Positions 43,111-62,050 of a stretch of 64,000 nt of DNA are shown one piece after another. A program made the translations under genes and the position numbers. Below the pieces are notes generated by a model. That model made no database searches. It had not been told where the DNA came from and saw nothing but the letters and a program-made list of their open reading frames with translations. The stretch comes from Candidatus Bathyarchaeota archaeon (GTDB lineage: Archaea > Thermoproteota > Bathyarchaeia > Bathyarchaeales > Bathycorpusculaceae): contig CAWGZR010000003.1 of assembly GCA_963827165.1 (NCBI GenBank), forward strand, positions 128,001 through 192,000. Reading direction: 5' to 3'. Numbering within the stretch: position 1 is the first letter of the stretch; the number at the start of each line of letters is the position of its first letter.

Positions 43111-43426
43111 TGGGCTGGCGAGTTGGTGTGTGGCTTTCGGACCCAAATTGATGGGTCTGAGGAAACTCCGCCCACGTGTAGAATTGCAGCTCCCCGAAGG
43201 GGCAACGCGAGAGCGTTGGCAACGGAGCAGAAACGAAACGTCCAGTTGGACTTGTCGATGACGCGTTTGTGACGCTGAGTGCGCCAACTTGGAAGCGGTG
43301 AAACGGCCGTCCTGCAAGTGGAAAGGGCAAACAGTCGCCGATGCGGAATCTACCCAAGGCGCGGGTAGCCCGATTAGCCGAATGCCACAATAACAGAAGG
43401 CGGGTTACAGCCAACACACCAGCCTA
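43111..43426 (+). ncRNA. rnpB: RNase P RNA
   Basis: GAGGAAACTCCGCCC, CAGAAAC, TGAAACGGCC, AACAGAAGGCGGGTTA; 5' and 3' ends pair as P1. Confidence 0.93.
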
Positions 43427-43454
43427 TTTCACTAATACACCAGCCTTTTTGATT

Positions 43455-44118
43455 ATTCAGTAGGTTTTTTTGCCTTCCTAAACATATTATTCCTTGAGGA
43501 GTTGTGCAGACATACTGTCAAGCCTGCTCGATCAATTCACCTGCTTCCTTTGCATCTTTGGCGGTTGCATGGTGATAGTTTTCAGCGTCATCATCAACTG
43601 GAACCAAGTGAGTGTAAACGAGGGTGATGTTTATGTTCCGATGGCCAAGAAGCTCCTTGACATTAAGAATGTTTCTTAGTCATAGCGTATTCTTTGGTAG
43701 CTTTGAAGTGCCTGAGCGAGTGAAACTTGATTTGCTTTAGTCGTGGATTCTGAATTCTCTGAGCGATGGAGGCTTTTTGTCGGTCATATTTCCAGCGAAA
43801 AGCAATCAGATTACTGTGGCCGAATATGTAGTCGTTTGTTTTCGGGAGCATTAGTAATCTGGCTGTCAGTTGGCTTGAGAGTTTTTCCTGTCTTGGGTTG
43901 CCATGCTTTTCTGCTACGCATTTCAGAGTGAAGTTCTCTTCATCAAGATCTGTCCACTTGCATTGCCATAGTTCGCTTATTCTGAATCCTGTTTCTTTGA
44001 AGGCTAAAACGCATGTTCCGACTTTTTTTGTGCTGGCGGCAACTAACGCATCAACTTCTTTTTCTGTCGGGATGAAGGGCAGCGATTTCTCTTGTTCTCG
44101 TAATATGCCGGTTCCCAA
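43455..44118 (-). pseudogene. Tyrosine integrase remnant
   Basis: ETGFRISE, HSLRH, then after a frameshift LLGHRNINITLVYTHL; N-terminus missing; internal stop. Confidence 0.85.
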
Positions 44119-44298
44119 GGTATTTTTGGCATTTCAGCGAAAATATCATAGACGCTGACAAAATCCCGGTCTTACAAAAATTCACTAATGTTTCAAAATT
44201 CTGACTTGTTGTGTCTTCGTGTAATCACATACATAAATATAACAAAATCTAATCAATCTCAAACAAGCAAGCATGCAAAATTTTGGCGTGAAAGAAAA

Positions 44299-45073
44299 TT
44301 GTCAAAAACAACGAAGAATTTAAAGATTCTTGCATTGTTTCTGCTGACTTCGGGGCTTTTTATTGCAGCGTTAAATTCATGTGTGCCAAACGTGAAAGCT
44401 CAGGGAACGGACACTGTTGTTGTTTTTTCATCAATAGGTGGAACAACAGATCCAGATGTAGGCTCTTATAACTATAGTGATGGGTCTACTCAAACATTCA
44501 CAGCAACCGCAGGAGATGGCTTTATTTTCCAAAACTGGGAGATTGCCACTGCTTCAGGATCCTACTCAGACACAGATAACCCCCTCTCACTCACCCTTAA
44601 CGAAACTCAATACGCTATACAAGCAAACTTCCAAACTGTCGTATTTACCGGTCCGGTCAACGTTACATTGAACATGGCTACCGACGCAATCGTTGTTGTA
44701 TTAGGAGCTGTCGGAGGAACCGTAAGCCCCACACCGGGAACGTATGCATTAGCAAGTGCTACAACACTTAATTTGGTTGCGACTCCAGACTAGCGGATGG
44801 ATTTTTAGCCACTGGGTTATCGGTGGCTCTCCAATGAACCATGGCGCATATTCATTCACAGATACTCCGACAGACAACCCATACAACGTTAACCACGGGT
44901 ACGGAAACACTTACACTTACCAGGCTGTCTTCACTCCGGTCAGCTCATCGACTTCCCCAACACCAACATCTACAGTGCCTGAATATTCGTCTGCCGCCGC
45001 AGTTCTGGTCGCCGCCATACTACTCGTAGTTGCATTCGGGGTATTTTCCTACAGCAAGAAAGCAAGAAAATAA
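44299..45073 (+). CDS. Surface protein with repeat domains and PEF-CTERM-like sorting tail (frameshift near 44790)
   Basis: Signal peptide, GGTTDP/GGTVSP repeats, VPEYS-TM-KKARK. Confidence 0.7.
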
Positions 45074-45506
45074 AATCTCTTTTTCTTTTTTTTGGTGCGC
45101 GCTTAAAATTGCTTTTGTTACCGCATGCTGGGCAGGTTACTTTGGTCTGTGCGATTCGACATAATTGAGCGCTTTTTGGAGATAATTTTGCCGCAATGTG
45201 GGCAGTTGATGATGCAGTGGTCCAACCTTTCGTCTCCTCGGTTTCTGCCGGCTATGTGCCCGAACAAAAAAGATGGAAACTGTGGAAATTTGCCAATGTC
45301 GGTGTATTAGAGCCAATACACCAGCCCACAAATAACAGATTTTTGAAAAAAGTGAAAAGATGAATCTGGGTTTTGTATTAGAGCTTACAAATAAGACGAT
45401 GTTGTCTTCCCCGCCTCGCGGTCGCCTCAAGTTCCCCTTCCTTTGAAAAGCGTGGGATTTAAGAAGAAGGAGGGCGGTAAATAGTCTCAATGTCGGCCAC
45501 TTCGCA

Positions 45507-45755
45507 CTAGTCTTTGAGAGAGCGGAAAATTACGTTGCCGTCTTGTTCTTTTATGTACAGTTCATTTCTTTTTAGTACCCCGTTTAATGCTTCTTTTGAA
45601 GTGTTGTCTAATTCGCATTTTATCTTTATTTCGTATCCGCCAGTGGATACATGAGATACTTGTGAGCCGTCAAGGAAAACGCAGTTTAAGGCTTCCGATT
45701 TCTTTAAAGCGTCACGAATCTCATTCAACACCGCTAAGGCTTCTGATTTGTTCAT
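45507..45755 (-). CDS. Small hypothetical protein, probable paralog of 51618..51863
   Basis: Shared pattern: M..EA..L.EI, GY.I.IK, terminal VI. Confidence 0.65.
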   Translation of the reverse strand: MNKSEALAVLNEIRDALKKSEALNCVFLDGSQVSHVSTGGYEIKIKCELDNTSKEALNGVLKRNELYIKEQDGNVIFRSLKD

Positions 45756-46092
45756 AAAAATAGATGTGTAACAAGTAGTTTTAATAATTTATGCAAGCGT
45801 TATGACTGAAATTGCTTTGGCATCCAAGCAGCATCATATTTTACCAGACTAAACCGTTTTATTCGCGGAGCAGAAGCCCTAATTTGCTGCGAGGCGAAAT
45901 AGGAGAAATGGTCCCCAGATATGTTTCAATGAATGGCGGGTTACAACCAACACACCAAGCCTTTTTTACTAACAAACAAGCTTTCCGTTTACTATTTCAC
46001 TACTAAGTTAGGGGTCAAACTTGATTTTGGTAAAAAGATTTATTAAAAGAGCCTATTCTTAGTAAAATGTAAATTTTTTGGTGGTTGTTAAA

Positions 46093-46482
46093 ATGGAAGA
46101 CCGAAAAAACATAATTGCAGAGTATTTTAAGTTAATTGAGTCGGGAAAATTCAAGGAAGGTTTGCGTTTTTTTGCGCCGGAATGCAAAACGCACAACCCG
46201 TTCGTTTTTGGCGATATGAGTGCCCTAACTGACGCAATGATTGCTGCGAACAAAGAGTATTCTCCGAAATATCCGGAGGCTCAGTTTGCGGTGAGGTATT
46301 TGCTTGCAGATGGGGATTATGTTGTTGCCTACACTCAACTTATGGCTTCTCCAAGCAAACCAAGTGAAGGCGGGCTCCGCCAAATGCACCTGTTTCGTTT
46401 TGAAGGAGACAAAATTGTCGAGTCCTGGGATATCACTCAACAAATAATGCCAAATATGCCAAATGCTGCTGGCTCTTTCTAA
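46093..46482 (+). CDS. SnoaL/NTF2-like protein
   Basis: HNP, ADGDYV, HLFRFEGDKIVESWD. Confidence 0.85.
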   Translation: MEDRKNIIAEYFKLIESGKFKEGLRFFAPECKTHNPFVFGDMSALTDAMIAANKEYSPKYPEAQFAVRYLLADGDYVVAYTQLMASPSKPSEGGLRQMHLFRFEGDKIVESWDITQQIMPNMPNAAGSF

Positions 46483-46558
46483 AAGAGGCCAAGTTTTTCA
46501 CCAGATTTCAATCTTTTCTGAAAGCCAACAATGCAATCGAAGCTATAGTAATCGGAAG

Positions 46559-47190
46559 TCAACTTTTCTTGATTGGTTGCCTAATTATTGTTTTCATTTT
46601 TTCAGGAGTAGTTCTTGTTGCGTCAGTCAGGTAAATCTCGTGATGTTTTCCATTAAACTCGTAACCATTCTGTTTGATGAAAGTATGGATATTTTCTATT
46701 GTCGGCGACTCTGCGGAAAAGGGACCAACGTATAGAATCTGTGCGGCTAGAGCCTTCTTTGAAGTTCTGGAAGCGCAGTTTAGAGAGAGCGATAGGGCTT
46801 TTTTTCTTTTTAACTTGTTCTAAAGCTTCATTGACCAAGGCATCAGTGATAAACTTTGGTTGCATAATCAATTGCTGTCCAGTTCCAATTGGATTTGTTT
46901 TCTGAACTGAATCGCGTAGGCTCGTCTGCCCACCATAAGCTCTCAAGAGGCAAAACCCCATAATCTATCGCCATTTTCCCTTTCTTAATCATAAATTTTA
47001 GAGTGTATGAAGTGGAAAACAAACCTTCAATGGCATCTTTGTAATCCTGAGAAGTATTCGGGTCTCCTCTACCATCCGCCATCAGAAAATCGAATTCAGG
47101 AACATCAACAATACAGAACTCTTTCTTTGACGAGTTGTAAAAGTCCCTGAATTTTTTCTTAAGGTCCTCTTTCTCCAAAACTGACCACAA
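46559..47190 (-). pseudogene. GyrI-like small-molecule-binding protein, frameshifted
   Basis: DGRGDPN, PLESLWW, HHEIYL..PEKMKTIIRQP spread over frames. Confidence 0.8.
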
Positions 47191-47306
47191 AATGTCCGTA
47201 ACATACTCTGTTATTTGAAGTTAATGAATTATCAATCATTGTCTTTCGACAGGCAATTGCGTTTTGATATGTTCAAGTAATTTAGTAACTCGGCGAAGGT
47301 TAGAGA

Positions 47307-47813
47307 TCAAAGATTTCCGTTTTTATTTGGTCGCTTATTTGTCGGTAAGAGGGCTATTGAGATGTCTTGGCAGTTGCTTTGAAGGGTCGAAATTTCTATA
47401 TGAAGAACTTCAATCGCTTTTTTCTTGTTATATATTTCTTTTAACATTCTTGCTCGAAGGTCTTGCTCCATTGAAAGTAAGTCCTGTTTGTGGTCTTTGA
47501 GTTCTTGTTCCTCCGCCTTAACTTTCTGGTAAGACAAGTAAAGTTCTGAAACATCGATTGAATTCATTGTCTCACAAAGGGCTGATGGTTTTGTTTGATT
47601 GAATTCATCAGTTGATTCCAACTGTTCAGGCTCTTTGGTTATCTCAAAGTCAGCGTGCATTTTTCTTAATTGATCAATAACGGAGACATCTTTTTGGTCC
47701 ATTAGTTGGATGGTTTTTTCAGAAATGTCAATTCCCCCGTTTTGGGCCTGTTTGGTCGCTTTGTAATCCTGATCTATTATGTGTAAGAATATGTTTTTGT
47801 TTTCTTTTTTCAT
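47307..47813 (-). CDS. Coiled-coil hypothetical protein
   Basis: Heptad-rich C-terminal half. Confidence 0.6.
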   Translation of the reverse strand: MKKENKNIFLHIIDQDYKATKQAQNGGIDISEKTIQLMDQKDVSVIDQLRKMHADFEITKEPEQLESTDEFNQTKPSALCETMNSIDVSELYLSYQKVKAEEQELKDHKQDLLSMEQDLRARMLKEIYNKKKAIEVLHIEISTLQSNCQDISIALLPTNKRPNKNGNL

Positions 47814-48099
47814 TCTTGTGCCCGATTTTGCTCTTTGTAGCTTTGTTCTCGAACTATATCTGCAGTATTAATACACCTCATATTGTTGTTGTGAAATATA
47901 AACTATAAGAAAAGGAAGTTTTGGCTTTAATGCCCCTTTGCACTTATGTTATCTCCAACAGGCGCCAGGTTACCACGAACCGCCGTCCAAAAAGCCTAAT
48001 AAGAAGACTTTTATCGAAAACCGGTTCTAGAGTAATTATGAATAGTTTCAGTAAGGTTTTCGCTTTTGCTTTTGTCGTTTTTTCATCGCCTCTTTAGTT

Positions 48100-48615
48100 A
48101 TGGTGCCCGCTGTGAAAGTCAACGCAGATTCAAGTGAACCCCTGACGTTTTCTTCCGGATTGACTCTTTATTCGCCAGTAAACACAACTTACAGTTCTAA
48201 TACCCTGGAATGTAACGGCACATTTGTTGGCCCAAGCGAATACGAAGTCTCCTTAAACTACAGCGTCGATGGAAACTATCAAGGTTACGTACCTTGGACT
48301 CTCAATCAGAATTCAAGCAGCTTAGCAACTTACACGTTAGATTGGTCATTTCAGTTGCCTCATCTGGCTAATGGATCGCATCAATTAAGCATCGGAATCG
48401 AAAAACAACTATACAACAGTAATGCTACTCTAACCAGTCAAACGACATTGGTAAACATCGCTTACTTCACAATAAGCCCAAGTTTTCAATCGATCCCAAC
48501 AGCGATAGAGGTTTCTTTGTTAGCAGTTGTGCTCTTGATACTTGTAGCGATTCTTATCGTATTATATTTGAGGCATCGAAAACCCGTAACTAAGAAAAAG
48601 GGCAACAAAGTTTGA
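48100..48615 (+). CDS. Ig-like exported protein with C-terminal TM
   Basis: SPVNTTY, YSVDG, LANGSH, TM followed by RHRK; signal peptide likely starts at ATG 48038 in another frame. Confidence 0.7.
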   Translation: MVPAVKVNADSSEPLTFSSGLTLYSPVNTTYSSNTLECNGTFVGPSEYEVSLNYSVDGNYQGYVPWTLNQNSSSLATYTLDWSFQLPHLANGSHQLSIGIEKQLYNSNATLTSQTTLVNIAYFTISPSFQSIPTAIEVSLLAVVLLILVAILIVLYLRHRKPVTKKKGNKV

Positions 48616-48663
48616 CTGGGTTAATAGTTCGCCACAGCAAGCAAATTGCGATAAGAAAAGGTC

Positions 48664-49380
48664 CTATTTCTGCTTGCCTTTTAAGCTCTTACCTTCAGAA
48701 AAGCTTGTGACGTATTTCCAATCTATGTTCTTTTCCCAAAATTCTTTGAATGACTTTCTGTACTTTGGCAGTCGTGATCTTCCTCTCCAAGTGCTCTTGT
48801 CCGCGAATTTCTTTATCTCAGCGGACGGTTTGAAATAGGCAATTGCGTTTTTGGGGCTTAGAACGAAGGGTGGGTACCCATAGTACATGTTGATCCAACT
48901 GGCGATTAAGCTGCCTGCTCTGTGGTTACCTTCGATAAAGAGTTGAGGGTACCCCAGTATTGCGACGTAAATTTCAGCCGCCACCTTCAGTGGATGGGGC
49001 TCTTTTTCCATGTGGTTTTGGTACCATTTTATTATGGGATCGATGTTTCGAAAGTATTTTTCTTCATTGGCTCTAATTGCCTTAACGTATTCTTGGCGCA
49101 GCTTGAAGTCCAGGCCATAATGAACCAGATTATTCAGTTCACATATATCTTCGAGGCTTTCAATTGAGAATGGTTCAACGCCTTTTCCCAGTAATTCATC
49201 TAGCAGCCCGTAGGCGTTCATCATCCTCGATTTAACCACGGCGTTGAACGGAGTATCCTTTCTCCCAATCTTTTCTAAATCAAGTTCGTCGTCAATCTTT
49301 TCCCAGTTATTTTCAACCAGGGTCAAAGACTGTTCAACCTTTGGCAAATTTATTCTCAGTATGTCTTTTTGCTTAGGCAT
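48664..49380 (-). CDS. Fic/Doc-like protein with non-canonical motif
   Basis: PQLFIEGNHRAG. Confidence 0.7.
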   Translation of the reverse strand: MPKQKDILRINLPKVEQSLTLVENNWEKIDDELDLEKIGRKDTPFNAVVKSRMMNAYGLLDELLGKGVEPFSIESLEDICELNNLVHYGLDFKLRQEYVKAIRANEEKYFRNIDPIIKWYQNHMEKEPHPLKVAAEIYVAILGYPQLFIEGNHRAGSLIASWINMYYGYPPFVLSPKNAIAYFKPSAEIKKFADKSTWRGRSRLPKYRKSFKEFWEKNIDWKYVTSFSEGKSLKGKQK

Positions 49381-49585
49381 TTACCTAATTGTAACTCTCA
49401 AATCTAAAATAGATTACTTTATTCGTCTAGCAGATGGTTGGAGCACGACGCTGTTTGCTCGGGAAAAGGCGTTCCATAAATCTGAAAAATATCTCATAAA
49501 AAAGATTAGGCAGTTCACCAAAAGATTGTTGATGCTTTTTTACAGTCACATATCCTTAAGTGGCTGGAGTTATTGTGGTTTGTAG

Positions 49586-49996
49586 GTGATTTTGTTGAGG
49601 TTTTTAGTGATTGGTAGAGGTATTGACTATGGTGGTCCGATGGATCCCGCGGATTTTGTGGCCGCTGCGGAATACATTATTTTGCCGAGCATTCAGATGC
49701 TGAAGGATTGGGAAGACAAAAAAGTGATTGTCGGCGGATTATTCGCGGGTCAAAGAGCCGGAGTAATGATTATAGAATCCCCGTCTGCCGAAGAGCTAAG
49801 CAAGAAGATGAATAGCTTGCCGTTTTGGAGCCAAAATAGCTGGGAAGTTATTCCCCTTCAGACATTGCAGTCAGGAGTAGACGATGTTAAAGCGCAAATT
49901 GCTCGCGCGAAAAAGATGGCTGAAATGGCGCAGGCTGCCAACGTTTCTCCGATGCCCACTGAAAAAGAAACAGGCGGAGTTATGCCGCAATTTTGA
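49586..49996 (+). CDS. Muconolactone isomerase-like protein
   Basis: GVMIIESPSAEEL..SLPFW..WEVIPL. Confidence 0.65.
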   Translation: MILLRFLVIGRGIDYGGPMDPADFVAAAEYIILPSIQMLKDWEDKKVIVGGLFAGQRAGVMIIESPSAEELSKKMNSLPFWSQNSWEVIPLQTLQSGVDDVKAQIARAKKMAEMAQAANVSPMPTEKETGGVMPQF

Positions 49997-50121
49997 AACT
50001 ACCGATTATCAGTCGCCTGCCTGAAATATTAGGCTACGATTAGGTCGGCTCCTTTTTTCTTTCGCAGATGCCTCACACATTTGGCCCGATTTTTCTCAGA
50101 AAAAGCGCAAAAACAGCGTAT

Positions 50122-51863: not shown

Positions 51864-52766
51864 CGCTTAAAATCCCTGAATTTATAATGAAACCACCAAA
51901 AAATCAAAAAAACTGCTTTTCAGGCCAAACACTTTTCCATGAATCCTTTGAAATACATAGTAAGGTTTTTGAGCGCCAAATCCAATGGGCTTGTAAGGTT
52001 GATCAACTTTGTCTAGACGAGATAAAAAAGCTGAGGGTTTAGAGCAACACAAGAAACTGCAACGCGAAAAAGATCAGAAACGAAAAGAGCGTAAGCAGGT
52101 ATCACTCCCAGCGAAACACCAGAAAGGCAAAAAATAACTGGACGCCCAAACAGCGTTTTTCCCTTTTTTAAGCAAATATAGCCGCGCTAAGATCCCGGTC
52201 GTACTCTTTTAGGAATATTAAATGCCGAATAGTTTGTACGTAATTCGGGGTCAACCCTGTGATTCTAAATGTTCTCTGATTTGCGCCCAACCAACAGCCA
52301 AACTGAGAGACAACCAACTGATTTTGGTTGTCAACCTGTCTATTTTTTCGAAAATTATTAAAGCGCTAACTTGCATTACATTACACTTGGAGAACAAAAA
52401 ATGCCGAAGAAAGATAAACCCTTAACTAAAAAAGAAAGAGACGAGAAAAGAAAAGCCCGTAAAGAAAAGAAGAGTAAAACACAGACTTAAAACTTCGACC
52501 GAAAAAAATAGGGTCCTTTTTTTCACCCTTAATTTTATTTGATTCGACGCAGAAATCGTGTTTGCGTGTTTTACTTAAATGAGAATGAATTTTCACAGGT
52601 ATCCCTCTTTTCAATCAGCCGGCGGCATCGAACCTCAAGATTAAGACATAGAAAATATTGTAGGTGACAATCGGGCTGCTGAAAAAGAGTTTTTTCAACA
52701 AAATATAAAAAGAAATGTTGGTTTATATAGGCAGTGTGTGAGGCTTAGGTTAGAGGAGAAGTTTGT

Positions 52767-54587
52767 ATGGGTACTCATAAATTTGTAAGCAGGAAGACTG
52801 CTTTGGGCGTCATTGGTTTGTGCATTATTCTTTCGGTTGTTGTGATTGGTGTTTTGATGCAGAATTCAAATGCTAATCTTAAGAATCAAGCTGCATCGAA
52901 GGACTTGGTTATTCAATCCTTGAACTCGACTGTCGGCACCCTGAATGCGACTGTTAACAAGGATAATTCAACGATTGACGCCCTGAACGCCCAAATAGCA
53001 ACTCTCCAGAAACAAGTTAAATCTGAGAACCAAAACAACTCGGCCCTTCAGTCTGAATTTACAGCGACAACTTCTCAACTTACTTCCCAGCTTAGTACCG
53101 CAAATAATGAAGTAAGCTCGCTTCAAAATCAGATTAACTCAAATGCGCAGGCGATAGTTCTTCAAAATCAGCTGACAGCCGCACAGGCGCAAGTAACAAG
53201 CCTGCAAAACCAAATCGGTTCATATCAATCAACAATCACCTCGTTGAACTCAAAGGTGGTAAACTTGGATTCAACGATGGCAAACTGGGATAGCCCCGTC
53301 CAAAATGGGTTTAGTCTTATGCAAATCACAGATACTCAGTTTCTAAGTGAGTCTAACCCAAGCCTATTCAACACGTTGACCAGCTGGATAGTAAACAACA
53401 GTGAAGCCCTGAAAGTTGCAATGGTTATCCATACGGGCGACATTGTAAATGACCCGACTAACTTAACTGAATGGCAAGCCGCCAACACCTCCATGATGCA
53501 GCTCAAAAATAACGGAGTTCCTTACAGTTGGTGCGCAGGAAACCATGATATTTTAGGAGAAACCCTTCCGAACGGGAATGCTAATGGCGAATGGCTAGGC
53601 GGAGAAGGCTTCTCAGCCTTCGACGTAGGGGCTATGCAACAAGAACCTTATTGGGTTGCAAGCATTTTCAACGGAACAAGCACAGCGGTACAATTTAACT
53701 ACGGCATTTACCATTTCTTGGTCATTAATGTCGCTTATGATGCCAACCAAACTGTCATAGACTGGATGCAAGCGCTTATCAAGAGTAATCCCACAGCAAA
53801 CGTGATTGTCACAACTCACAACTTTCTCAATGGGGAAGGTGGATACGGATATCCGTACAGTCAAGCAGACGTCGACTGGGCAGCTGCTTTTAACAATACT
53901 TTATGCACCGACCCTAACGTGTTTTTGACCTTAAGCGGACACGCGATCGGCGAAGGTACAGCGTCCTGGGTGAGGAATGGAAACAGGACAGATATTTTCT
54001 TTAACAGACAGCAAGAAGACAATTTTCAGGGTGGCGCCAGTGTGAGGATCTACACTTTCAATATGACTAATGCAGCAAACCCCACCATAAACGTTTACAC
54101 ATATCTGACGTACCCAACCGGATCAGCAGCAACACCAATGTACCTAACTGATTCGTCCGATGAGTTCAGCTTCACCTCAAACCTTACTGCTTATTCACCA
54201 TCCACGGTTAGTTTCCCTAGCGGCACTAACTTCTGGGGGGCAAGCGGCTTTTCAACAAGCTTTACGAACCCAATAACTCTAACGAGCTACAACCAGACAG
54301 GAGACCTGCTTAGATTCTACAATTTAACATTCAACGGCTTAACTTCAAACCTGACTATGAGCTCCGTTGGCTCCAACATTGTAATAAGCAACTATAACTC
54401 CACAAGCATAACGTACGCGGTTGGCGGAGGAAACAGCACCCAAACATTCCTAACCAACGTAATTCCAACATCGGTAACCGTTGACGGTAATCCAGCAGAA
54501 ACATCTCAAGGCACCCACTGGAACTACATAAATGGAGTCATCACAGTCACAGGCGCCACCACATCAGTGACCATAAATTTCACCTAA
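52767..54587 (+). CDS. Membrane-anchored calcineurin-like metallophosphoesterase with coiled-coil stalk
   Basis: TDTQ, HTGDIV, GNHD, TH, SGH; N-terminal TM. Confidence 0.88.
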   Translation: MGTHKFVSRKTALGVIGLCIILSVVVIGVLMQNSNANLKNQAASKDLVIQSLNSTVGTLNATVNKDNSTIDALNAQIATLQKQVKSENQNNSALQSEFTATTSQLTSQLSTANNEVSSLQNQINSNAQAIVLQNQLTAAQAQVTSLQNQIGSYQSTITSLNSKVVNLDSTMANWDSPVQNGFSLMQITDTQFLSESNPSLFNTLTSWIVNNSEALKVAMVIHTGDIVNDPTNLTEWQAANTSMMQLKNNGVPYSWCAGNHDILGETLPNGNANGEWLGGEGFSAFDVGAMQQEPYWVASIFNGTSTAVQFNYGIYHFLVINVAYDANQTVIDWMQALIKSNPTANVIVTTHNFLNGEGGYGYPYSQADVDWAAAFNNTLCTDPNVFLTLSGHAIGEGTASWVRNGNRTDIFFNRQQEDNFQGGASVRIYTFNMTNAANPTINVYTYLTYPTGSAATPMYLTDSSDEFSFTSNLTAYSPSTVSFPSGTNFWGASGFSTSFTNPITLTSYNQTGDLLRFYNLTFNGLTSNLTMSSVGSNIVISNYNSTSITYAVGGGNSTQTFLTNVIPTSVTVDGNPAETSQGTHWNYINGVITVTGATTSVTINFT

Positions 54588-55001
54588 CTCCCTATAAAAA
54601 ATCTAGGCCAAAAAAACATTTGGACAAAACGACAGGGAGAATCGCCCTACATCAGGGGTTTCTCCATTTGTTCCGCTCCTTGATTGCGAGCCAGTGCATG
54701 GCTGATGTAGGTTTTTTTTGAATTAAAAGATGCGTTGCACATCGTGCATGGAATTTGCCTTTCTCAAGCATTTTGGGCTCGAGGATATTCTGATTCTGCA
54801 TGCCGGGTGTTGTAGCGCGGAGGTCGTTGTGTCCGTTGCGTTTGAGCCGGGATTGATTTTACTCAAAAGTTTAACCTACACTTGAACCCTATGATAATTG
54901 ACACATTTTTCAAAGCTGCAATTCACATTTAAAGTTGTGTGACTGTGCAAAGCAAGCTACAAACAAACTGATCGAGAATGAATTGAGTGGAAAAGCGTCT
55001 T

Positions 55002-55343
55002 CTAAGAGTATTCTCGGAAGGTGTGACCGCATTTAGTGCAGCGCATGAATTGGGTTGATGCTTCGTCGCCGCCGCGGGTCTGAACTTGCCACACGAACAC
55101 TTCGTTGTTTTCGCATTTCTCGCATTTCATTCTGATGGTCTGCATGGTTTTGACGTTTTGTTCTTCTTCGCTTATGACGGTCATGAATGGCTGAGATGTA
55201 GGTTGAATAACCCTAACGACCTTTGCTTGCTCTCTGTTGGTGGAAGGTGCCTTAGTGAAACCGCATTTACAGCAGACAAGTGCCACTGTACCCTCTGATT
55301 TTTTGGGTTCGAGACGAACGCCGCAAGTTGGGCAAAACTCCAT
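55002..55343 (-). CDS. tfs: Transcription factor S
   Basis: FCPTCG; QTRGGDEASTQFMRCTKCGHTFREY. Confidence 0.92.
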   Translation of the reverse strand: MEFCPTCGVRLEPKKSEGTVALVCCKCGFTKAPSTNREQAKVVRVIQPTSQPFMTVISEEEQNVKTMQTIRMKCEKCENNEVFVWQVQTRGGDEASTQFMRCTKCGHTFREYS

Positions 55344-55530
55344 TTACAAAAACCCCTCTCGATATTCCCCATTCAAAAGGAACATACCCAATATAAGTCT
55401 TGTTAGATTTCCACCGACAATTTCAGGCAAGAAGAATGAAGGGCTCAAAATTCGATCAAATCTTCAAAGTATTCAAACGCAAATTAAAAATATCTCGACG
55501 CTTGTAGAAGGCGATGGATGGAATTTAAAA

Positions 55531-56169
55531 ATGGAAGGAACGCCTAAGAGCGAATGGCAAACAATTGACCATGTACTTGCTTACCTGGCGAGAGCCGATA
55601 AGCTTCCGCATAGGACGGAAGGCGAACGAGTCTTGCTTGAACAGATCCCATCGCATACCAAACGTATTTTGGATTTAGGAACAGGCGATGGCAGACTGCT
55701 TTCACTGGTTAAAATGAGCCGACCAAATGCTGAAGGCGTAGCGGTGGATTTCTCTGACCCGATGCTTGAACGCGCAAGAAAACGTTTTGCAGACGACAAA
55801 AACGTAACCGTGGTTAAACACGATTTTGGTTCTCCGCTTCCAGCTAAGCAACTCGGCTGCTTCGACGCCGTTGTATCAAGTTTGGCAATTCACCATTTAA
55901 CCCATCCGAGAAAGAAGCAACTGTACACCGAAATATTCAACCTTCTAAACTCCGAAGGCGTATTCTGCAACCTGGAACGAGTGGCGTCCTCAACAGAAAA
56001 TCTCCATCACAAATTTGTTGTAGCCACAGGAACCGAAGTAGAGGACCCTTCGAATAAGCTTTTAGATGTTGAAACACAGCTTAAATGGCTGAGAGAGATA
56101 GGGTTCAGCGACGTTGATTGCTACTGGAAATGGTTGGAAATAGCGCTCTTGATAGGTTTCAAACCTTAA
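55531..56169 (+). CDS. Class I SAM-dependent methyltransferase
   Basis: ILDLGTGDG, DFS, FDAVVSSLAIHHL. Confidence 0.9.
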   Translation: MEGTPKSEWQTIDHVLAYLARADKLPHRTEGERVLLEQIPSHTKRILDLGTGDGRLLSLVKMSRPNAEGVAVDFSDPMLERARKRFADDKNVTVVKHDFGSPLPAKQLGCFDAVVSSLAIHHLTHPRKKQLYTEIFNLLNSEGVFCNLERVASSTENLHHKFVVATGTEVEDPSNKLLDVETQLKWLREIGFSDVDCYWKWLEIALLIGFKP

Positions 56170-56262
56170 ACCTGCCTCTTTTTGGCATCTAATCACCAAA
56201 ACGGAAAATAGAAAACGATAATAATGCGCTTGTACAACATTCTAGTTAGAGGTTTTTATCAA

Positions 56263-56787
56263 ATGACAACTAGCAATAGTAGTGGACAGATTGACCTTAT
56301 GCATTGGCTAATTCGCTTAATCGCTTACATCATCGACGCAATAATAATCTTCGTGGTAACAACTATACTAGGCATCATAATAGCAATAATAGCTGTCGCA
56401 GCAATAGCCACCGGCTCCGTGCTTTTCTACGGCGGACTATGGCTAACTTTTGGGCTCTTTGGATTACTCTCGATACTATACTTCATCATCTTGGACGTCG
56501 TCTGGGGCGGAACAATTGGAAAAAGACTCATGGGCTTAGACGTGCAACTGGAAAAAGGCGGAAGAATATCAATTGGCAAATCATTCATCCGCAACATAAG
56601 CAAAATCTTCGCGCTTTTCCTATTTCTCGACTGGTTGATAGCCGTTGTAACTGCTGGAAACGACAGGCGCCAAAAATTGACCGACCGCTGGGCAGGAACC
56701 ACCGTTGTCCAAGTAAAGCAAGTATTCCAAACTAGCCAACCATCCCCAACACCAGCTCCACCGCCGCCTCCGCCACCAGCCGCTTAA
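56263..56787 (+). CDS. RDD family membrane protein
   Basis: RLIAYIID, TIGK, RN, DRWAGTTVV. Confidence 0.9.
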   Translation: MTTSNSSGQIDLMHWLIRLIAYIIDAIIIFVVTTILGIIIAIIAVAAIATGSVLFYGGLWLTFGLFGLLSILYFIILDVVWGGTIGKRLMGLDVQLEKGGRISIGKSFIRNISKIFALFLFLDWLIAVVTAGNDRRQKLTDRWAGTTVVQVKQVFQTSQPSPTPAPPPPPPPAA

Positions 56788-56882
56788 ATCAAAAAACCCT
56801 TTCTTTTTTTTGAATTAATTCTTCACCTAATAATGAACTTGCAATAATCATTGATAAAGTCAAACGGCTATTTCGATGGCTT

Positions 56883-57221
56883 TTAGGCGTTGAGTTCTTC
56901 AAGCCAAACTACGAGTTGCTTTTCACTTAACCCCACACCGAATTTTCCGTCGAGACGTTTGGCAATCTTGCCTTTTTCGAAGAGAATTACTGTTGGAACA
57001 GCATCTATTTCGTAGTCATCCCACATTGGATTATCGTAGTCGTCAATTACGACGTGAACAACTGCTCCGCCGCGAAAGCTGCCGGCTTTCTTTTTGAAAA
57101 CTGGGACAAACCTCATGCAATGAGGGCACCAAGTGGCATAGAACAAAGCGAGAACTTTTTCGTTCTTTTTTAATTCTTCAGTAAAGTTTTCTTTGTTGTC
57201 AACTTCGACCATAAGTATCAT
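56883..57221 (-). CDS. Thioredoxin family protein
   Basis: FYATWCPHC, VPT. Confidence 0.92.
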   Translation of the reverse strand: MILMVEVDNKENFTEELKKNEKVLALFYATWCPHCMRFVPVFKKKAGSFRGGAVVHVVIDDYDNPMWDDYEIDAVPTVILFEKGKIAKRLDGKFGVGLSEKQLVVWLEELNA

Positions 57222-57328
57222 TTAAAATCGACTTTTCGTTATTCATAAACATACCGTTCTAAACCCTTCAGACATGCATCCGAAAGGAAGCCTAAATAAA
57301 GCAAACCCAAATCAATAGCTGGGATACA

Positions 57329-58051
57329 ATGTCGCGGAAAGCTTATAGAAGAGGTTATCCGGTTGCAGTTTTGATTGGAATCGAGGTTGACCATGCTGCT
57401 TTATGGCAGATCTTTAGTCAAGTTGCAAAGCAACTGCAGATAATTCCACTTAATGGGAGCAGAAACGATGCAAAAGCCGTCTATAACTTTCATGAATCCT
57501 TAGTAAACGCGTTGCGGCCGACGCTAAAAGAAGGTCTGAGAAGCGTTATTGTTGCGTCTACCCCTAAGACCACTTACGCGCAAGAATTCACAAACCACAT
57601 AAAAGCGCATCACAGTTGGCTAATGCAAGGCGCAAACAGAGCAGCTATCTCAACCATAACGAGTTCCGCCAGTTCCCCTCAACAAGTCGCCGCCTTAACC
57701 AAAACAACGGCATTTAAAGAGCTAATCAACCAAACAACAGCGCAGGAAACAGAAAACCTGCTTGAAATCCTCGAAAAACGACTAAACGCTACCGACAACA
57801 TGGTGCTTTTCTCTTTGCAAGAAGCCGAAAACCTCATCCTTAATACCCAAGGCGAAGGCAAGCCAAAACCCGAATACCTTATGCTTACCGACGAATACCT
57901 TTCAAAAAGCCGGCAAAAATACCGCTTGCAAAGGCTTATGCAGGTTGCGGCAAATAGGGGCGTTAAAACACGTGTTATCAGTGCCGATTCAACTGCAGGA
58001 AAGCGCCTCACTCAGTTAGGCGGAATTGTCTGCTTGGCAAAACGCGACTAG
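57329..58051 (+). CDS. Pelota/aRF1 domain 2-3-like protein
   Basis: Terminal STAGKRLTQLGGIVCL; lacks the N-terminal domain. Confidence 0.55.
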   Translation: MSRKAYRRGYPVAVLIGIEVDHAALWQIFSQVAKQLQIIPLNGSRNDAKAVYNFHESLVNALRPTLKEGLRSVIVASTPKTTYAQEFTNHIKAHHSWLMQGANRAAISTITSSASSPQQVAALTKTTAFKELINQTTAQETENLLEILEKRLNATDNMVLFSLQEAENLILNTQGEGKPKPEYLMLTDEYLSKSRQKYRLQRLMQVAANRGVKTRVISADSTAGKRLTQLGGIVCLAKRD

Positions 58052-58053
58052 GA

Positions 58054-58794
58054 TCATTTGAGTAGCTTTGCTTTTCTTAATTCTTCAACTGAAATCTTGC
58101 CAGAATGCAAAGCAGAAGCCACCAAAACACCTGAAACACCCAGATTTTTCAGCTCAACTAAATCGGAGATACCTCGAACTCCGCCGCCAACATAAACATT
58201 GAGGGTTAAGGATTTTTGGACTTTGCCCAGAAAATCAACGTTGACTCCTTCACCACTGCCCACCCTCGCCAAATCCAAAACAATCACCTGCGAAACACCC
58301 AAAGATTTGAATTCCCTCAGAAGGCACAAAGGATCCGCGCAGCCGTCGAACCCTGGCTTTGCAAGAACTTTATCGCCATTCAAATCTAAACTGACGATGA
58401 GGCGTTCACTCCCAAATCTCTTGACAGCTTCACCGACGAAGCCCTTGTTTTGAAGAGTCTCCGTTCCGACAACCAATTTCGAAACTCCTTTCGACAGCAA
58501 ACTCTCTGCCCTATCCATTGACGTTACGCCCGCATCAACCATCAAATTAAGACCCGATCCATCAGCAAGTCGTTTAAGTGCTTGAAAGTTCGAGGAGCAA
58601 TCGATAATTGCGTCTAAATCAGCCACGTACAACTCCCCGAAACCAAGTGCTTTGAATGCTTGAGCAACTTGCAAGGGGACTGAGGAATCGCACACAACAC
58701 TTTGGATGGGTCGATACTCGCTTCTTTTGCCCTTGACCGCATGCACCACAGCGCCGTTCAAAATGTCGATTACCGGAATAATTTTCAGGTTCAT
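58054..58794 (-). CDS. HisA/HisF-related TIM barrel protein (C1-cofactor associated)
   Basis: IPVIDILNGAVVHAVKGKRSEYRP, YVADLDAI, RVGSGEG. Confidence 0.85.
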   Translation of the reverse strand: MNLKIIPVIDILNGAVVHAVKGKRSEYRPIQSVVCDSSVPLQVAQAFKALGFGELYVADLDAIIDCSSNFQALKRLADGSGLNLMVDAGVTSMDRAESLLSKGVSKLVVGTETLQNKGFVGEAVKRFGSERLIVSLDLNGDKVLAKPGFDGCADPLCLLREFKSLGVSQVIVLDLARVGSGEGVNVDFLGKVQKSLTLNVYVGGGVRGISDLVELKNLGVSGVLVASALHSGKISVEELRKAKLLK

Positions 58795-58893
58795 TCACCA
58801 TCTTTGGAATGATTGTGAACAAATAGAAAAACATAGCCGTTACTGAGCAAAACTTTTAAAGCCTTCATTAATGCGCTTGATAATGACCCAAGA

Positions 58894-59634
58894 TTGAAGC
58901 TGCTAATTAGTCCCGCCAACGTAGAGGAAGCCTCTGAAGCCATTGCTGGAGGCGCTGACATTGTGGATGTAAAGAACCCACAGGAAGGCGCATTAGGTGC
59001 TAATTTTCCGTGGGTAATCAAGCAGATAAGAGATCTTGCACCGAAAAACGTTGAGGTAAGCTGCGCCCTTGGCGATGTTTCAAATTTTCCTGGTTCTGTG
59101 TCGTTGGCTGCTTTTGGCGCTGCAACGCTAGGTGTTGATTATGTTAAAGTTGGGTTGTACGGATTCAAAACCGAAGCAGAAGCGATTTACCTACTGCAGA
59201 ACGTTAAGAGAGCAGCTAAGGGATGCAACCCTACAATCAAGGTGGCAGCCGCCGGGTATGCGGACGCACAAAGAATCGACGCACTCGACCCGTTGTTGAT
59301 TCCTCAGATAGCGTTCAAAGCTCAAGTGGACGTTGCAATGCTTGACACAGGAGTCAAAGACGGCAAAAACCTCTTCAACTACCTGTCGGAGACGCAAATC
59401 AAAAAATTTGTTGATGACAGCCACCATTTTGGCCTTGAAGCGGCTTTGGCTGGGTCGCTACAGAAAGAAGATTTGCCAGTTATCTACCAGTTAGGTGCTG
59501 ACATCGCAGGTTTACGCGGTGCCGCCTGCACAAAAGGTGACCGCGTCAAAGGCAAAATGAAAAAAGCTCTCGTACAAGAACTTGCAAAAGTCATAAAGCG
59601 AGCTGAAGAGCAAGCTAAAAAGCCGAGGGCTTAA
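58894..59634 (+). CDS. mfnB: (5-formylfuran-3-yl)methyl phosphate synthase
   Basis: LLISP..GGADIVDVKNPQEGALGANFPW, DYVKVG, LAGSL, RGAAC. Confidence 0.95.
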   Translation: MKLLISPANVEEASEAIAGGADIVDVKNPQEGALGANFPWVIKQIRDLAPKNVEVSCALGDVSNFPGSVSLAAFGAATLGVDYVKVGLYGFKTEAEAIYLLQNVKRAAKGCNPTIKVAAAGYADAQRIDALDPLLIPQIAFKAQVDVAMLDTGVKDGKNLFNYLSETQIKKFVDDSHHFGLEAALAGSLQKEDLPVIYQLGADIAGLRGAACTKGDRVKGKMKKALVQELAKVIKRAEEQAKKPRA

Positions 59635-59636
59635 AT

Positions 59637-60776
59637 GTGCTATCAAGCGGCTTAAGCAAAAGACAGGTGCTGGCTGAACTAAAAAAAATCCGATGCTTAG
59701 ACCAACAATACAATGACGGCAAAATTCTGTGTTCAATGTGCACCAAATCGCACCCGACAGCTGAAAAAGCGTACAGGCTGTTTTTAAACTCTAACTTAGG
59801 CGACCCAGGGCTCTTTCGAGGAAGCGTTCAACTGGAAAAAGAGGTCGTCAACGCTCTAACCAGGCTTCTTCACGGCGAAAACTGCGTTGGCCACATTGTT
59901 TCCGGAGGTACCGAGGCTAATTTGACGGCGCTCTTGGCGGCAATTAAAAAGGCGAGTGTTCGAGTTCCCGAGGTGGTTTTGCCTGAATCAGCTCATTTCT
60001 CGTTCACAAAAATCTGCAGCATCTTAAACCTCAAACCGGTTTATGCTGGCTTAGACGACTCTTTTAAGGCTGATCCAAAGCAGGTTGAAGAATGCATCGG
60101 AGAAAACACTGTCGCTTTAGTAGGGACGGCTGGGTCTTCTGAGCTAGGAATTGTCGATCCGATCGAGGCACTTTCTCAAATCGCAGCTCGGCATAATGTT
60201 TGGTTGCATGTCGATGCAGCCTTTGGCGGCTTGGTCATCCCGTTCCTCGCTGACGCTCAACGCCCCTTTGACTTCGGATTGGAGGCTGTGGAATCCATGA
60301 CTGTCGACCCACATAAGATGGGCATGGCGGCGATCCCAGCGGGCGGAATCCTTTTCAGGCACGCCGAAGCGTTGAATTCCCTCAAGACTGAAACGCCTTA
60401 CTTAACTGACCAGTTCCAAAACACTTTTACGGGAACAAGATCTGGCGCCGCCGTAGCTTCGACATGGGCAGCCTTCAGGTCGATCGGCTTTAATGGCTAC
60501 AGAAAAATCGTAGGCAAATGCATGAAGACTACAAGATTTTTTGCTGATGGGCTGACAGAGAGAGGTTGCGCTCTCGTCACGAAACCAACCCTAAATATAG
60601 TGGCATTTCGCAGCAACAACGGCAGCAAACGCTTAGCTGAGAAACTTCGGGAACAAGGCTGGTTCATCTCATACGTGCCACGCTACGACTGCTTAAGAAT
60701 AGTCGTCATGCCCCACGTCAAGAAACAGCATGCCATGGCTTTTTTAGAAGATGTAGCGAAAATCGAAAAGCTTTAA
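59637..60776 (+). CDS. mfnA: L-tyrosine/aspartate decarboxylase
   Basis: SMCT, NLGDPGLF, SGGTEAN, HVDAAFGG, DPHK, VVMPHV. Confidence 0.95.
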   Translation: MLSSGLSKRQVLAELKKIRCLDQQYNDGKILCSMCTKSHPTAEKAYRLFLNSNLGDPGLFRGSVQLEKEVVNALTRLLHGENCVGHIVSGGTEANLTALLAAIKKASVRVPEVVLPESAHFSFTKICSILNLKPVYAGLDDSFKADPKQVEECIGENTVALVGTAGSSELGIVDPIEALSQIAARHNVWLHVDAAFGGLVIPFLADAQRPFDFGLEAVESMTVDPHKMGMAAIPAGGILFRHAEALNSLKTETPYLTDQFQNTFTGTRSGAAVASTWAAFRSIGFNGYRKIVGKCMKTTRFFADGLTERGCALVTKPTLNIVAFRSNNGSKRLAEKLREQGWFISYVPRYDCLRIVVMPHVKKQHAMAFLEDVAKIEKL

Positions 60777-60816
60777 GGTCACGCGTTGTTTCCATCGACT
60801 CTAAAAGGACGATACT

Positions 60817-62049: not shown

Positions 62050-62050
62050 C

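Follow-up and report, generated by a model that had tools for sequence, protein, structure and literature searches.

Why does the 3′ end of an RNase P RNA gene (rnpB) recur some 2.5 kb downstream of that gene, and why does a broken tyrosine integrase gene lie against it? These questions are raised by a 64,000-nucleotide stretch of DNA (hereafter the window) from an uncultured soil archaeon of the Bathyarchaeia. An initial annotation, made from the sequence alone, attributed the arrangement to one integrative element at positions 43396 to 45984 and supposed that an rnpB-specific integrase clade exists. Based on comparisons with related genomes and metagenome contigs, we conclude that, in this genus of Bathyarchaeia, rnpB very probably offers its 3′ end as the attB site of small integrative elements, whose Xer-like tyrosine integrases form a clade of their own.

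The 3′ End of rnpB Is Repeated Downstream of the Gene

The rnpB gene occupies positions 43113 to 43424 of the forward strand. The Rfam model RF00373 matches positions 43118 to 43419 on this strand with 194.8 bits (gathering score 84) over model positions 1 to 288, and helix P1 is predicted to extend 5 bp beyond this match, with GGCUG (43113-43117) pairing with CAGCC (43420-43424). The 3.13-Mb genome yielded a single copy of rnpB. Across the whole window, ARAGORN detected neither tRNA nor tmRNA genes, and the target at this locus is rnpB, neither a tRNA nor a tmRNA gene. At occupied loci, rnpB matches the full model with scores of 170-199 bits.

The last 26 nt of the gene (43399-43424, forward strand) form the putative attL repeat. 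This 26-mer is repeated at 45935-45960 with three mismatches, and none of 100 shuffles of the window gave two matches. The degenerate recurrence described in the initial annotation is thus borne out, and the two 50-nt strings quoted there align at 43 of 51 columns. A third direct copy, absent from that annotation, is located at 45301-45326 with 5/26 mismatches. When both strands of the 3.13-Mb genome are searched for the 26-mer with up to five mismatches, five occurrences are found (approximately 0.024 are expected by chance), of which three are at this locus and two are on contig C13. One to three extra copies are present downstream of rnpB at 10 of 21 loci, comprising the window and 20 other rnpB loci from the same genus. 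No minus-strand copies occur in those 21 loci, and no inverted att core was found in them, in 10 further rnpB loci, or on contig C13.

The core itself, TTACAGCCAACACACCAGCC (43405-43424), consists of the end of the conserved single-stranded stretch before the last helix and the whole 3′ strand of P1. Its left limit is set by a pair of attP and attL sequences (loci L115 and L052) whose agreement stops just left of TTAC. An element-derived arm called P′ (43425-43466) separates the core from the end of the integrase gene; it begins with TATTTCACTAATACACCAGCC and holds a second ACACCAGCC as a direct repeat 21 nt past the first. The same P′ arm lies behind rnpB in every relative whose integrase of the window's clade (clade A) converges on rnpB.

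A Decayed Tyrosine Integrase Converges on rnpB

A clade-A tyrosine integrase pseudogene (43467-44168, reverse strand) ends 43 nt from rnpB, with the C-terminus of its product facing the RNA gene. Its identification in the initial annotation is confirmed by a match to PF00589 of 30.4 bits (cut-off 27.1), compared to 65.6 bits for an intact relative (L054). Alignment with a 430-amino acid intact relative accounts for residues 194-426 only, distributed over three frames with an in-frame stop, and residues 1-193, including the zinc ribbon, are missing. The lesions are two frameshifts, one near 44090 and one at 43676, and the stop at 43518-43520; in metagenome contigs, the frameshift seen at 43676 in the window lies at 43828 instead. 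Three motifs remain legible, namely, ETGFRISEL, FHSLRH, and LGHRNINITLVYTH.

Intact members of the clade carry an N-terminal zinc ribbon (DUF7838, IS1/IS1595-like). In the integrated state, full-length open reading frames (ORFs) of 382-430 amino acids adjoin rnpB, and the core lies beyond the stop codon. R213, K246, H300, R303, H326, and Y335 are invariant in five intact members, and we take these to be the catalytic R, K, H, R, H, and Y residues of the family. Archaeal integrases include the “suicidal” SSV type, in which attP is inside the ORF and the gene is split on integration, and the non-suicidal pNOB8 type. We considered and rejected an SSV-type split integrase, given that the 3′ end of the integrase gene rather than a break point faces rnpB and that intact relatives are whole when integrated. 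Identity with XerA (NF040815) was likewise rejected, based on a score of 88.8 bits against an equivalog cut-off of 220 and on up to 21 matches per genome among the matches listed.

Related Integrases Are Linked to rnpB

A survey of 120 genomes from the genus, conducted using the window integrase as the query, provided the 150 listed matches considered here, with 435 further matches beyond these. At least 15 loci in the genus encode integrases that are at least 60% identical to that of the window, and the next-best among the matches listed are at most 47% identical. The initial annotation had proposed examining whether homologs of the integrase adjoin rnpB. A full rnpB gene is indeed abutted, within about 30-100 nt, by 13 of the 15 loci with at least 60% identity, although these are not independent counts because the genomes are related, and every genome is a MAG. 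At one of the remaining loci the contig ends inside rnpB, and the other, on contig C13 of the window's own genome, lies against 63 nt that match the end of rnpB perfectly. This fragment on C13 sits beside housekeeping genes.

Among 20 loci taken from the next 22 matches listed (43-47% identity), the integrase adjoins tRNA-Cys(GCA) in 10 cases, tRNA-Ala(UGC) in one, and rnpB in none. No RNA gene was found at the other nine, two of which end within 45 nt of the integrase. In a tree of 43 integrases, all seven that converge on rnpB and three that are linked to the att core fall in one clade (100/100, branch length 1.06), whose sister is the tRNA-Cys/Ala group. A second, distant integrase lineage (G003, L088) is also found at rnpB.

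Metagenome contigs supplied 69 integrase loci, which overlap in part with the genome loci (e.g., L115 with L052, and L119, L120, and L128 with L072). Among the 25 that are at least 51% identical to the window integrase, 10 adjoin a full rnpB, four adjoin an rnpB cut by the contig end, eight pass from the att core into other DNA, and three leave no room to tell. The 44 loci with at most 43% identity include 13 at tRNA genes and none at rnpB. The genus loci, the tree, and the metagenome contigs therefore agree with the earlier proposal that an rnpB-specific integrase clade exists.

A Proposed Mechanism of Integration

Two of these loci, L115 and L052, share 99.3% identity along 1939 nt, and their sequences part exactly left of TTACGGCCAACACACCAGCC. 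From there, one of the pair runs on into rnpB (attL), and the other runs on into the element's own left end. This own-end junction of L115 could be either an attP or a junction between tandem elements. The latter may apply because no circular contig was found (terminal overlaps were seen in none of 10 candidate contigs) and no viral relative was found (none of 255 pattern hits in a viral collection is a relative). Junctions of the attP type were found at L115 and L071.

How the sequences are laid out, the association of the clade with its target, and the attP/attL pair are observations; they suggest the following model, in which the catalysis, the position of the crossover, and the order of events are proposals. 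The attP site would hold a core of approximately 20 nt, TTAC-NN-CCAACACACCAGCC, about 30-40 nt past the integrase stop codon, that is identical to the 3′ strand of P1 and the last bases of the conserved stretch before P1. Recombination with rnpB would then rebuild an intact rnpB gene at attL, with its terminal bases supplied by the element, and would leave the displaced copy of the gene end at attR. Later arrivals would use this restored site and displace earlier elements downstream. The evidence supports the earlier view of the repeats as an att layout, in that they appear to be scars left where an integrase inserted DNA into the rnpB 3′ end.

Remnants of More Than One Element Probably Lie Behind rnpB

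We propose that the window holds a decaying array. In this array, rnpB and its attL would be followed by a 1.9-kb remnant, with the broken integrase and a surface-protein gene, that reaches to an attR at 45301-45326, then by a 0.6-kb older remnant, and then by an even older attL scar at 45935-45984. The assignment of the middle copy as attR is based on its left arm. This copy (45256-45326, forward strand) is composed of a left arm (45256-45300) and a decayed core (45301-45326), and the arm resembles those of L054 and L040 with local scores of 20 and 17, respectively, neither of which was reached in 200 shuffles. One of these two relatives has an intact integrase and the other a broken one, and in both the element-end sequence precedes attR. 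Because the middle copy carries the element end found before attR in these relatives, it is likely the cognate attR of the integrase-bearing remnant, which extends about 1.9 kb from rnpB to this copy.

The second remnant (45327-45934) holds an 82-amino acid ORF (45507-45755, reverse strand) of no known family. The distal copy that follows it (45935-45984, forward strand) has the rnpB 3′ end with its 3/26 mismatches and then a P′ arm resembling that of class A1, CTTTTTTACTAAC. Its flank to the left of 45935 (…CCCCAGATATGTTTCAATGAAT) is like none of 13 arms compared, and on this comparison we rejected the distal copy as the cognate attR of the integrase. With attL the distal copy shares the arm on the right-hand side of the core, which derives from the element, and it is therefore best regarded as a former attL, left by an older element. 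Beyond it, the variable region continues (45985-50121) with a SnoaL-like gene at 46078-46482 and other ORFs, and a Pfam scan covered this gene and one of the ORFs (46843-47190). The nearest gene downstream that relatives also keep begins at 50122. Nothing in the array of the window can still move on its own.

A clean empty site for this insertion was not found among 20 relatives, and the native flank of rnpB is therefore uncertain. In soil metagenomes, loose ends of contigs at 43421-43445 show at least five different continuations behind rnpB. These may stem from other species with the same conserved rnpB end, and so they are not counted as empty sites. A joint of 44068 to 44423 in public contigs (run X3) was set aside as too weak, with 20 letters on its shorter side, and stretches that the public contigs leave uncovered carry no weight as evidence.

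Alternative Explanations

Could the two strings quoted in the initial annotation nevertheless be the attL and attR of one element spanning 43396-45984? They are the best-matching pair of copies, and the integrase pseudogene lies between them. However, the third copy divides the span, the middle copy rather than the distal one has a left arm that matches the attR arms of relatives, and the additional similarity of the distal copy is in the element-derived right arm that marks an old attL. Furthermore, the closest relative examined (G035) carries neither the integrase nor the surface-protein gene, yet it keeps the distal copy and the segment with the 82-amino acid ORF (80% identity over window positions 45498-45908). 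A single element is thus unlikely, and the third copy and the arm comparison do not support this part of the initial annotation. Relatives without the cargo that keep both repeats had been named there as evidence that would count against it; G035 is such a relative, and it speaks against the attL/attR pairing, not against the targeting of rnpB.

The preferred reading of rnpB as an attB site must also be weighed against common descent, because one ancient insertion in the ancestor of the genus would link integrase and rnpB by ancestry without any targeting. All full-length cases come from one class and mostly from one genus, whose related genomes are not independent, and the identities of rnpB and of the integrase show a weak positive correlation (r = 0.42). 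We nonetheless judge such a relic to be very improbable. The closest relative examined, an 82% complete genome, has no such integrase among the matches listed, and the two identities are incongruent both ways. Specifically, the 3′ parts of integrase genes are 94-95% identical between hosts whose rnpB genes are only 90% identical, and the rnpB nearest to that of the window among the integrase-bearing loci compared (L054, 95%) accompanies an integrase that is only 74% identical. Common descent also sits poorly with the unrelated cargo of the elements, with tandem arrays of up to four copies, with the 99.3% identity between an attP-type junction and an attL, and with the presence of the distant second lineage at rnpB. 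Yet another account would make the integrase a bystander to partial duplications of rnpB, left as segmental duplications or pseudogene stumps. Some copies do reach well past the 20-nt core into rnpB: the copy on C13 measures 63 nt and one in G002 about 56 nt, and run X1 has a loose end at 43370. The clade-A attP does not account for these longer copies. This account is barely credible given that every copy is direct and has the same core at its start or its end, that conserved element arms flank the copies, and that the copies follow the integrase clade.

Beyond the assignment of rnpB as an attB site, we speculate that the gene might be a standing integration hot spot for several integrase lineages in Bathyarchaeia. 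These would be the convergent form with the zinc ribbon, a shorter one from the same clade that is encoded on the rnpB strand, and an unrelated short clade. Each integration would replace the 3′ strand of P1, and therefore part of an essential ribozyme would be repeatedly rewritten by mobile DNA. Changes of the P1 sequence in the genus would be coupled to the host range of the elements because P1 must stay paired. The clade may also have arisen by a target switch from a tRNA-Cys-specific ancestor. We offer this broader scenario only tentatively.

Comparison with Known Integration Sites

The Islander type comprises genomic islands, prophages, and integrative plasmids that tyrosine integrases have inserted into the 3′ part of a tRNA or tmRNA gene (PMC4383910). 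Williams (2002) is reported to have described insertion of this kind. The elements described herein resemble this type in many respects: the integrase adjoins its target, a block of identity corresponds to the 3′ end of a stable RNA, the gene is rebuilt at attL, the displaced 3′ fragment marks attR, tandem accretion occurs, and target choice is clade-specific. The differences are that the target is the gene for the RNase P ribozyme and that helix P1 contributes its 3′ strand as the core. Like archaeal integrases of the pNOB8 type, those examined here are tyrosine recombinases of an archaeal host whose att core is outside the ORF and whose gene remains whole on integration, but they have the N-terminal zinc ribbon DUF7838 and belong to Bathyarchaeia. 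A parallel outside tRNA and tmRNA genes is Enterococcus phage phiEf11, which integrates into ffs, the 4.5S/SRP RNA gene, via a 27-nt core (PMC12540744). Both systems use a short core (about 20-26 nt here) near the end of the integrase gene, although phiEf11 is a bacterial phage and its RNA gene is different.

The phiEf11 paper lists tRNA/tmRNA and csRNA as earlier-known noncoding RNA targets, and rnpB is not among them (PMC12540744). Similarly, a TIGER/Islander paper sorts sites into tRNA/tmRNA genes, protein-coding sequences, and intergenic regions with no mention of “RNase P” or “rnpB” (PMC12424338), and neither term occurs in a review of archaeal integrases (PMC8371274). Our literature search, with supplementary site lists and subscription papers outside its scope, found no paper that names rnpB as an att site. 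If our assignment is correct, the RNase P ribozyme gene joins the short list of stable-RNA landing sites for mobile elements, and the case comes from an archaeal class in which mobile elements are almost unknown. Surveys that use the three site categories would probably call such islands intergenic and miss the target. Integrase clades at rnpB, tRNA-Cys, and tRNA-Ala also offer a compact set of natural cases in which to study target change by tyrosine integrases, and the attP, attL, attR, and core sequences make target switching directly testable in vitro. For annotation, such insertions would explain why the DNA that follows rnpB in this genus is variable and rich in pseudogenes.

The Surface-Protein Gene and the Cargo of Intact Elements

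The initial annotation had also placed a surface-protein gene between the repeats, and a match to PF18998 confirms this. The gene (44188-45073, forward strand) encodes a surface or membrane protein that carries InlB B-repeat domains; the hydrophobic anchor at its C-terminus has no NCBIfam match. A single extra base at 44789 splits the reading frame in the window. However, this base is not present in contigs from three of four public runs (X1, X2, and X4), and its removal yields one ORF of 294 amino acids. Thus, the frameshift is probably an assembly error. The protein family is present in 50 of the 120 genus genomes, and no integrase, att core, or tRNA was found within 1.5 kb at its five best other loci. 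Given this distribution, we rejected the family as a guide to an intact parent element with the same surface gene.

The cargo of four intact elements mostly belongs to no family. The exceptions are HTH proteins, one Rep-like protein (PF23343), and an MmeI-like restriction-modification enzyme, and a PRC-barrel match is weak (0.0028, below its cut-off). Comparison with PHROGs returned only methyltransferases and unknowns, and the cargo varies from element to element.

Copies of the rnpB 3′ terminus in the window and in relatives

A complete archaeal RNase P RNA gene is located at 43118-43419 on the plus strand (Rfam 194.8 bits, gathering score 84, model positions 1-288), and it is the only rnpB copy found in the 3.13-Mb, 14-contig genome. 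As read from the sequence, helix P1 is lengthened by 5 bp through pairing of GGCUG (43113-43117) with CAGCC (43420-43424), so the gene probably ends at 43424. With three mismatches, the 26-mer spanning 43399-43424 is found again at 45935-45960; none of 100 window shuffles yielded two matches to it. This agrees with the initial annotation, which reported that the rnpB 3′ end is repeated downstream and proposed aligning its two quoted 50-nt repeats; 43 of the 51 aligned columns agree. It overlooked a third direct copy between these two, at 45301-45326 (5/26 mismatches). Allowing up to five mismatches, the 26-mer occurs at five sites on both strands of the whole genome, three in the window and two on another contig (C13), against a chance expectation of about 0.024. 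The repeated core, TTAC-AG-CCAACACAC(CAGCC), comprises the last bases of a conserved single-stranded stretch lying immediately before the last helix of rnpB, plus the whole 3′ strand of P1 (Rfam structure line).

Among 61 related genomes, rnpB was detected in 52, and 20 same-genus loci were fetched with about 12 kb of downstream sequence and oriented. Counting the window there are 21 loci, and in 10 of them the locus-specific 26-mer is repeated downstream with no more than six mismatches. Such loci have between one and three additional copies each, 0.7-11 kb away and all on the rnpB strand; no inverted core was found in any locus scanned. Gene order is conserved upstream of rnpB and resumes downstream only after 2.8-11.6 kb, at 50122 in the window, and thus the whole of 43425-50121 is variable.

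Irregularities at rnpB were noticed in two genomes. In genome G020 (95% complete), no full rnpB was found, and an rnpB-like sequence in the usual gene neighborhood (C75:37880-38029; 72.7 bits, below the cut-off) retains only positions 1-23 and 182-302 of the window gene. The gene has undergone an internal deletion there, or else the assembly is faulty. In G023, contig C4 stops 2 nt past rnpB and a second rnpB with identical score is present at C13:2418-2718. That the assembly breaks precisely at the att site suggests that variants exist in the population.

A clade of integrases associated with rnpB

Using as query the 261-aa integrase that adjoins rnpB in genome G015, matches were obtained in 109 of 120 genus genomes, with up to 21 per genome. 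Among the 150 matches listed, beyond which there are 435 more, 15 loci are at least 60% identical to the query and the next-best are at most 47% identical, leaving a sharp gap. Full-length rnpB lies alongside 13 of these 15 listed loci, one is on a 2-kb contig that ends 108 nt into rnpB, and one, on C13 of the window’s own genome, is beside a 63-nt perfect copy of the rnpB end. In the next tier (20 loci fetched from the following 22 rows, 43-47% identical), rnpB adjoins none. There, tRNA-Cys(GCA) adjoins 10 loci and tRNA-Ala(UGC) one (own-genome contig C10), all in a convergent layout; ARAGORN detected no RNA gene at the remaining nine, including two where the sequence stops within 45 nt of the integrase.

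A collection of species-representative genomes yielded 30 integrase loci, including 17 that are at least 55% identical, 11 of them already present in the genus search. Of these 17, 13 adjoin full rnpB, two are on contigs ending inside rnpB, and two have the att core followed by non-rnpB DNA. The 13 lower-identity loci adjoin tRNA genes (six), rnpB (one) or nothing (four), or have a tRNA 0.76 kb off (one) or, for a bacterial match, a tmRNA gene 0.8 kb off (one). The lone rnpB-adjoining locus in this group has a 33%-identical integrase and probably belongs to another genus, because its rnpB is only about 70% identical to that of the window. Metagenome contigs contributed 69 loci. Among the 25 that are at least 51% identical, 10 have full rnpB adjacent, four have rnpB cut by the contig end, eight have the att core with other DNA beyond, and three leave no room to tell. 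Among the 44 that are at most 43% identical, none adjoins rnpB and 13 adjoin tRNA genes (six Arg, three Pro, three Cys and one Phe). These collections are not independent, since some metagenome contigs duplicate MAG contigs.

In a maximum-likelihood tree of 43 integrases, built without stop-containing pseudogenes or HSPs of less than 230 aa, all seven rnpB-convergent integrases fall within one clade (support 100/100) on a long branch of 1.06, together with those of G122, L071 and L072. This clade is sister to the tRNA-Cys/Ala group, and two integrases (G003 and L088) that are also directly behind rnpB form a separate, distant pair. The earlier suggestion that an rnpB-specific integrase clade exists, to be checked by the adjacency of homologs, is thus borne out, and comparative evidence gives good support to a predicted rnpB-targeting clade in an archaeon.

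Integrases linked to tRNA-Arg(GCG) or tRNA-Pro(GGG) (L075, L078, L079, L085, L131, L135, L149, L158 and others) are followed by the tRNA at a distance of 33-46 nt from the integrase stop and in the same orientation, so the tRNA 5′ end faces the integrase, unlike the convergent layout seen at tRNA-Cys, tRNA-Ala and rnpB. At four loci (L036 562-1749, L048 ~1049-1891, L038 952-1458 and L047 ~1745-1908), the rnpB strand also encodes another integrase of the same wide family, 1.3-2.8 kb upstream of the RNA gene. It is whole (395 aa) in one and fragmentary in the other three, and no target RNA gene was identified for it at these loci.

Attachment-site anatomy and evidence for mobility

Two layouts are found behind rnpB. 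In the first, a convergent integrase of 382-430 aa, with an N-terminal zinc ribbon (DUF7838) and a PF00589 domain, has its C-terminus toward rnpB. Conservation extends rightward from the core (CAGCC|TATTTTACTAA(T/C)…) into the integrase stop codon, about 30-40 nt further on. Four such elements (three with intact integrase) have at their opposite end, 4.2-6.5 kb away, a left arm that is conserved (AAAAAGGGAA.TGTGG…) and leads into a core copy whose six bases before TTAC are unlike rnpB. In the second layout, found at seven metagenome loci and in G122 and L086, rnpB is followed directly on its own strand by a shorter member of the integrase clade, which starts at approximately residue 80-115 of the long form and is flanked by different arms (…TCAGAACCC… right, AAATTACTAAGCCCAAA left).

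The most direct evidence for mobility is provided by metagenome contig L115 and MAG contig L052, which are 99.3% identical over 1939 nt spanning the integrase, right arm and core, and which part exactly to the left of TTACGGCCAACACACCAGCC. Beyond this point L052 continues into rnpB, whereas L115 continues into an element-type left arm; L071 has the same junction. We interpret this junction as a putative attP configuration or as two copies of the same element joined head to tail. Terminal overlaps, which would mark a circular form, were absent from all 10 candidate contigs. At L122 (~7876), the L056 attR and the third copy of L061, the left arm of one element class is joined to the right arm of another. 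These junctions represent mixed tandem arrays behind rnpB.

A single ancient insertion can be weighed against repeated targeting by comparing rnpB with the 3′ part of the integrase, and their identities are incongruent. The integrase part of L053 is 94-95% identical to those of L051, L059 and L061, while rnpB is only 90% identical. Conversely, rnpB is 95% identical between the window and L054 (integrase 74%) and 94% between L053 and L056 (integrase 72%). Cargo is wholly different between elements and includes HTH proteins, a Rep-like protein (PF23343), an MmeI-like restriction-modification enzyme, an MCM-like helicase (own-genome C13), and a 555-aa protein of no family that is common to two elements and the own-genome tRNA-Ala element. 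Taken with the attP-type junction and the tandem arrays, these observations argue for repeated, targeted integration and horizontal spread.

In the main articles of the searchable full text, rnpB is not named as an attachment site, and an earlier mention is possible. The terms “RNase P” and “rnpB” are absent from the searchable text of a 2021 review of archaeal tyrosine recombinases (PMC8371274). The accessible text of a 2025 paper on phage integration into ffs gives tRNA/tmRNA and csRNA as the ncRNA targets known earlier (PMC12540744), and that of the TIGER/Islander resource lists tRNA/tmRNA, protein-coding and intergenic site classes (PMC12424338). Because rnpB integration works like the tRNA/tmRNA type and departs from it only in the identity of the target gene, we rate it as a variant of that type.

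Probable layered remnants of insertions behind rnpB

As the initial annotation stated, an integrase pseudogene and a surface-protein gene lie between the copies. The pseudogene (44168-43467, minus strand; PF00589) retains only residues 194-426 of an intact 430-aa relative, split over three frames (194-221, 217-357, 357-426), with an in-frame stop at a position that is tryptophan in relatives. The N-terminal 193 residues, including the zinc ribbon, are absent. The surface-protein gene (44188-45073) encodes InlB B-repeat domains (PF18998) and a hydrophobic C-terminal anchor, and is broken by a frameshift in the window sequence.

Public contigs from four soil-metagenome runs (two studies) were compared with the window, and one is identical to it over 43663-45259 apart from three missing single bases (43676, 43828 and 44789); two of four runs show the first two deletions, and three show the third. 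Removing base 44789 in silico restores a single 294-aa ORF, so the surface gene is probably intact and its frameshift an assembly error. For the integrase, dropping 43676 mends one break and dropping 43828 creates another. For the frameshift near 44090 and the in-frame stop, both of which are spanned by contigs of run X1, the comparison with the public contigs reported neither indels nor base differences. Thus, the integrase is dead in either version. Single-base indels relative to near-identical public short-read contigs (43676, 43828, 44789, 45436, 45933, 45992) suggest errors in the window assembly, and other apparent frameshifts in the window, such as those of the overlapping ORFs at 46653-47190 (minus strand), therefore need caution.

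The surface gene occupies the place expected for the 5′ half of the integrase. Members of its family are present in 50 of the 120 genus genomes; at the five best loci apart from this one, neither an integrase nor an att core nor a tRNA lies within 1.5 kb. The gene may have arrived as cargo or by later replacement.

The earlier reading of 43396-45984 as one element needs correction. The arm at 45256-45300, left of the middle copy, is similar to the left arms found at attR in L054 and L040 (local scores 20 and 17, reached by 0/200 shuffles), whereas the arm left of the distal copy resembles none of 13 arms compared. The distal copy and attL are additionally alike on the right side of the core, within the element-derived arm (CTTTTTTACTAAC… versus TATTTCACTAAT…), which identifies this copy as a former attL. 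Moreover, G035, the closest of the 20 loci by rnpB (93.8% identity), lacks both integrase and surface gene, and its genome (82% complete) has no such integrase anywhere, yet it has its own distal copy and shares window positions 45498-45908 at 80% identity.

The simplest history of this region would be repeated insertion into a regenerated rnpB site. The oldest element would have left nothing but an attL scar (45935-45984), and a later one 45327-45934, with an 82-aa ORF of no known family. The youngest would be a 1.9-kb stump (43425-45326), compared to 5.3-6.5 kb in three relatives with intact integrase. The window copy is a dead relic, and its interest lies in the system that it reveals.

A second array and other features

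A second array of the same kind is present on C13 of the same genome (~53549-63695; L057 6350-16496), flanked by housekeeping genes (aEF-2) and with no rnpB upstream. It starts with an att copy (53549-53574) just past a flavoprotein gene, followed by a DUF234 ATPase gene and then by the 63-nt perfect rnpB-end copy, an element arm and a second broken integrase of the clade, whose DNA is 80% identical to that of the window pseudogene; the MCM-like helicase gene comes next. The C13 junction is also present as a loose end in run X1. Nearby, about 140 nt (52142-52285) are matched approximately 20 times across eight other contigs (70-91% identity) and may be a small dispersed repeat. Elsewhere in the window, 19410-21317 (minus strand) contains group II intron RNA domains (RF02003, 54.7 bits; RF00029, 49.1 bits).
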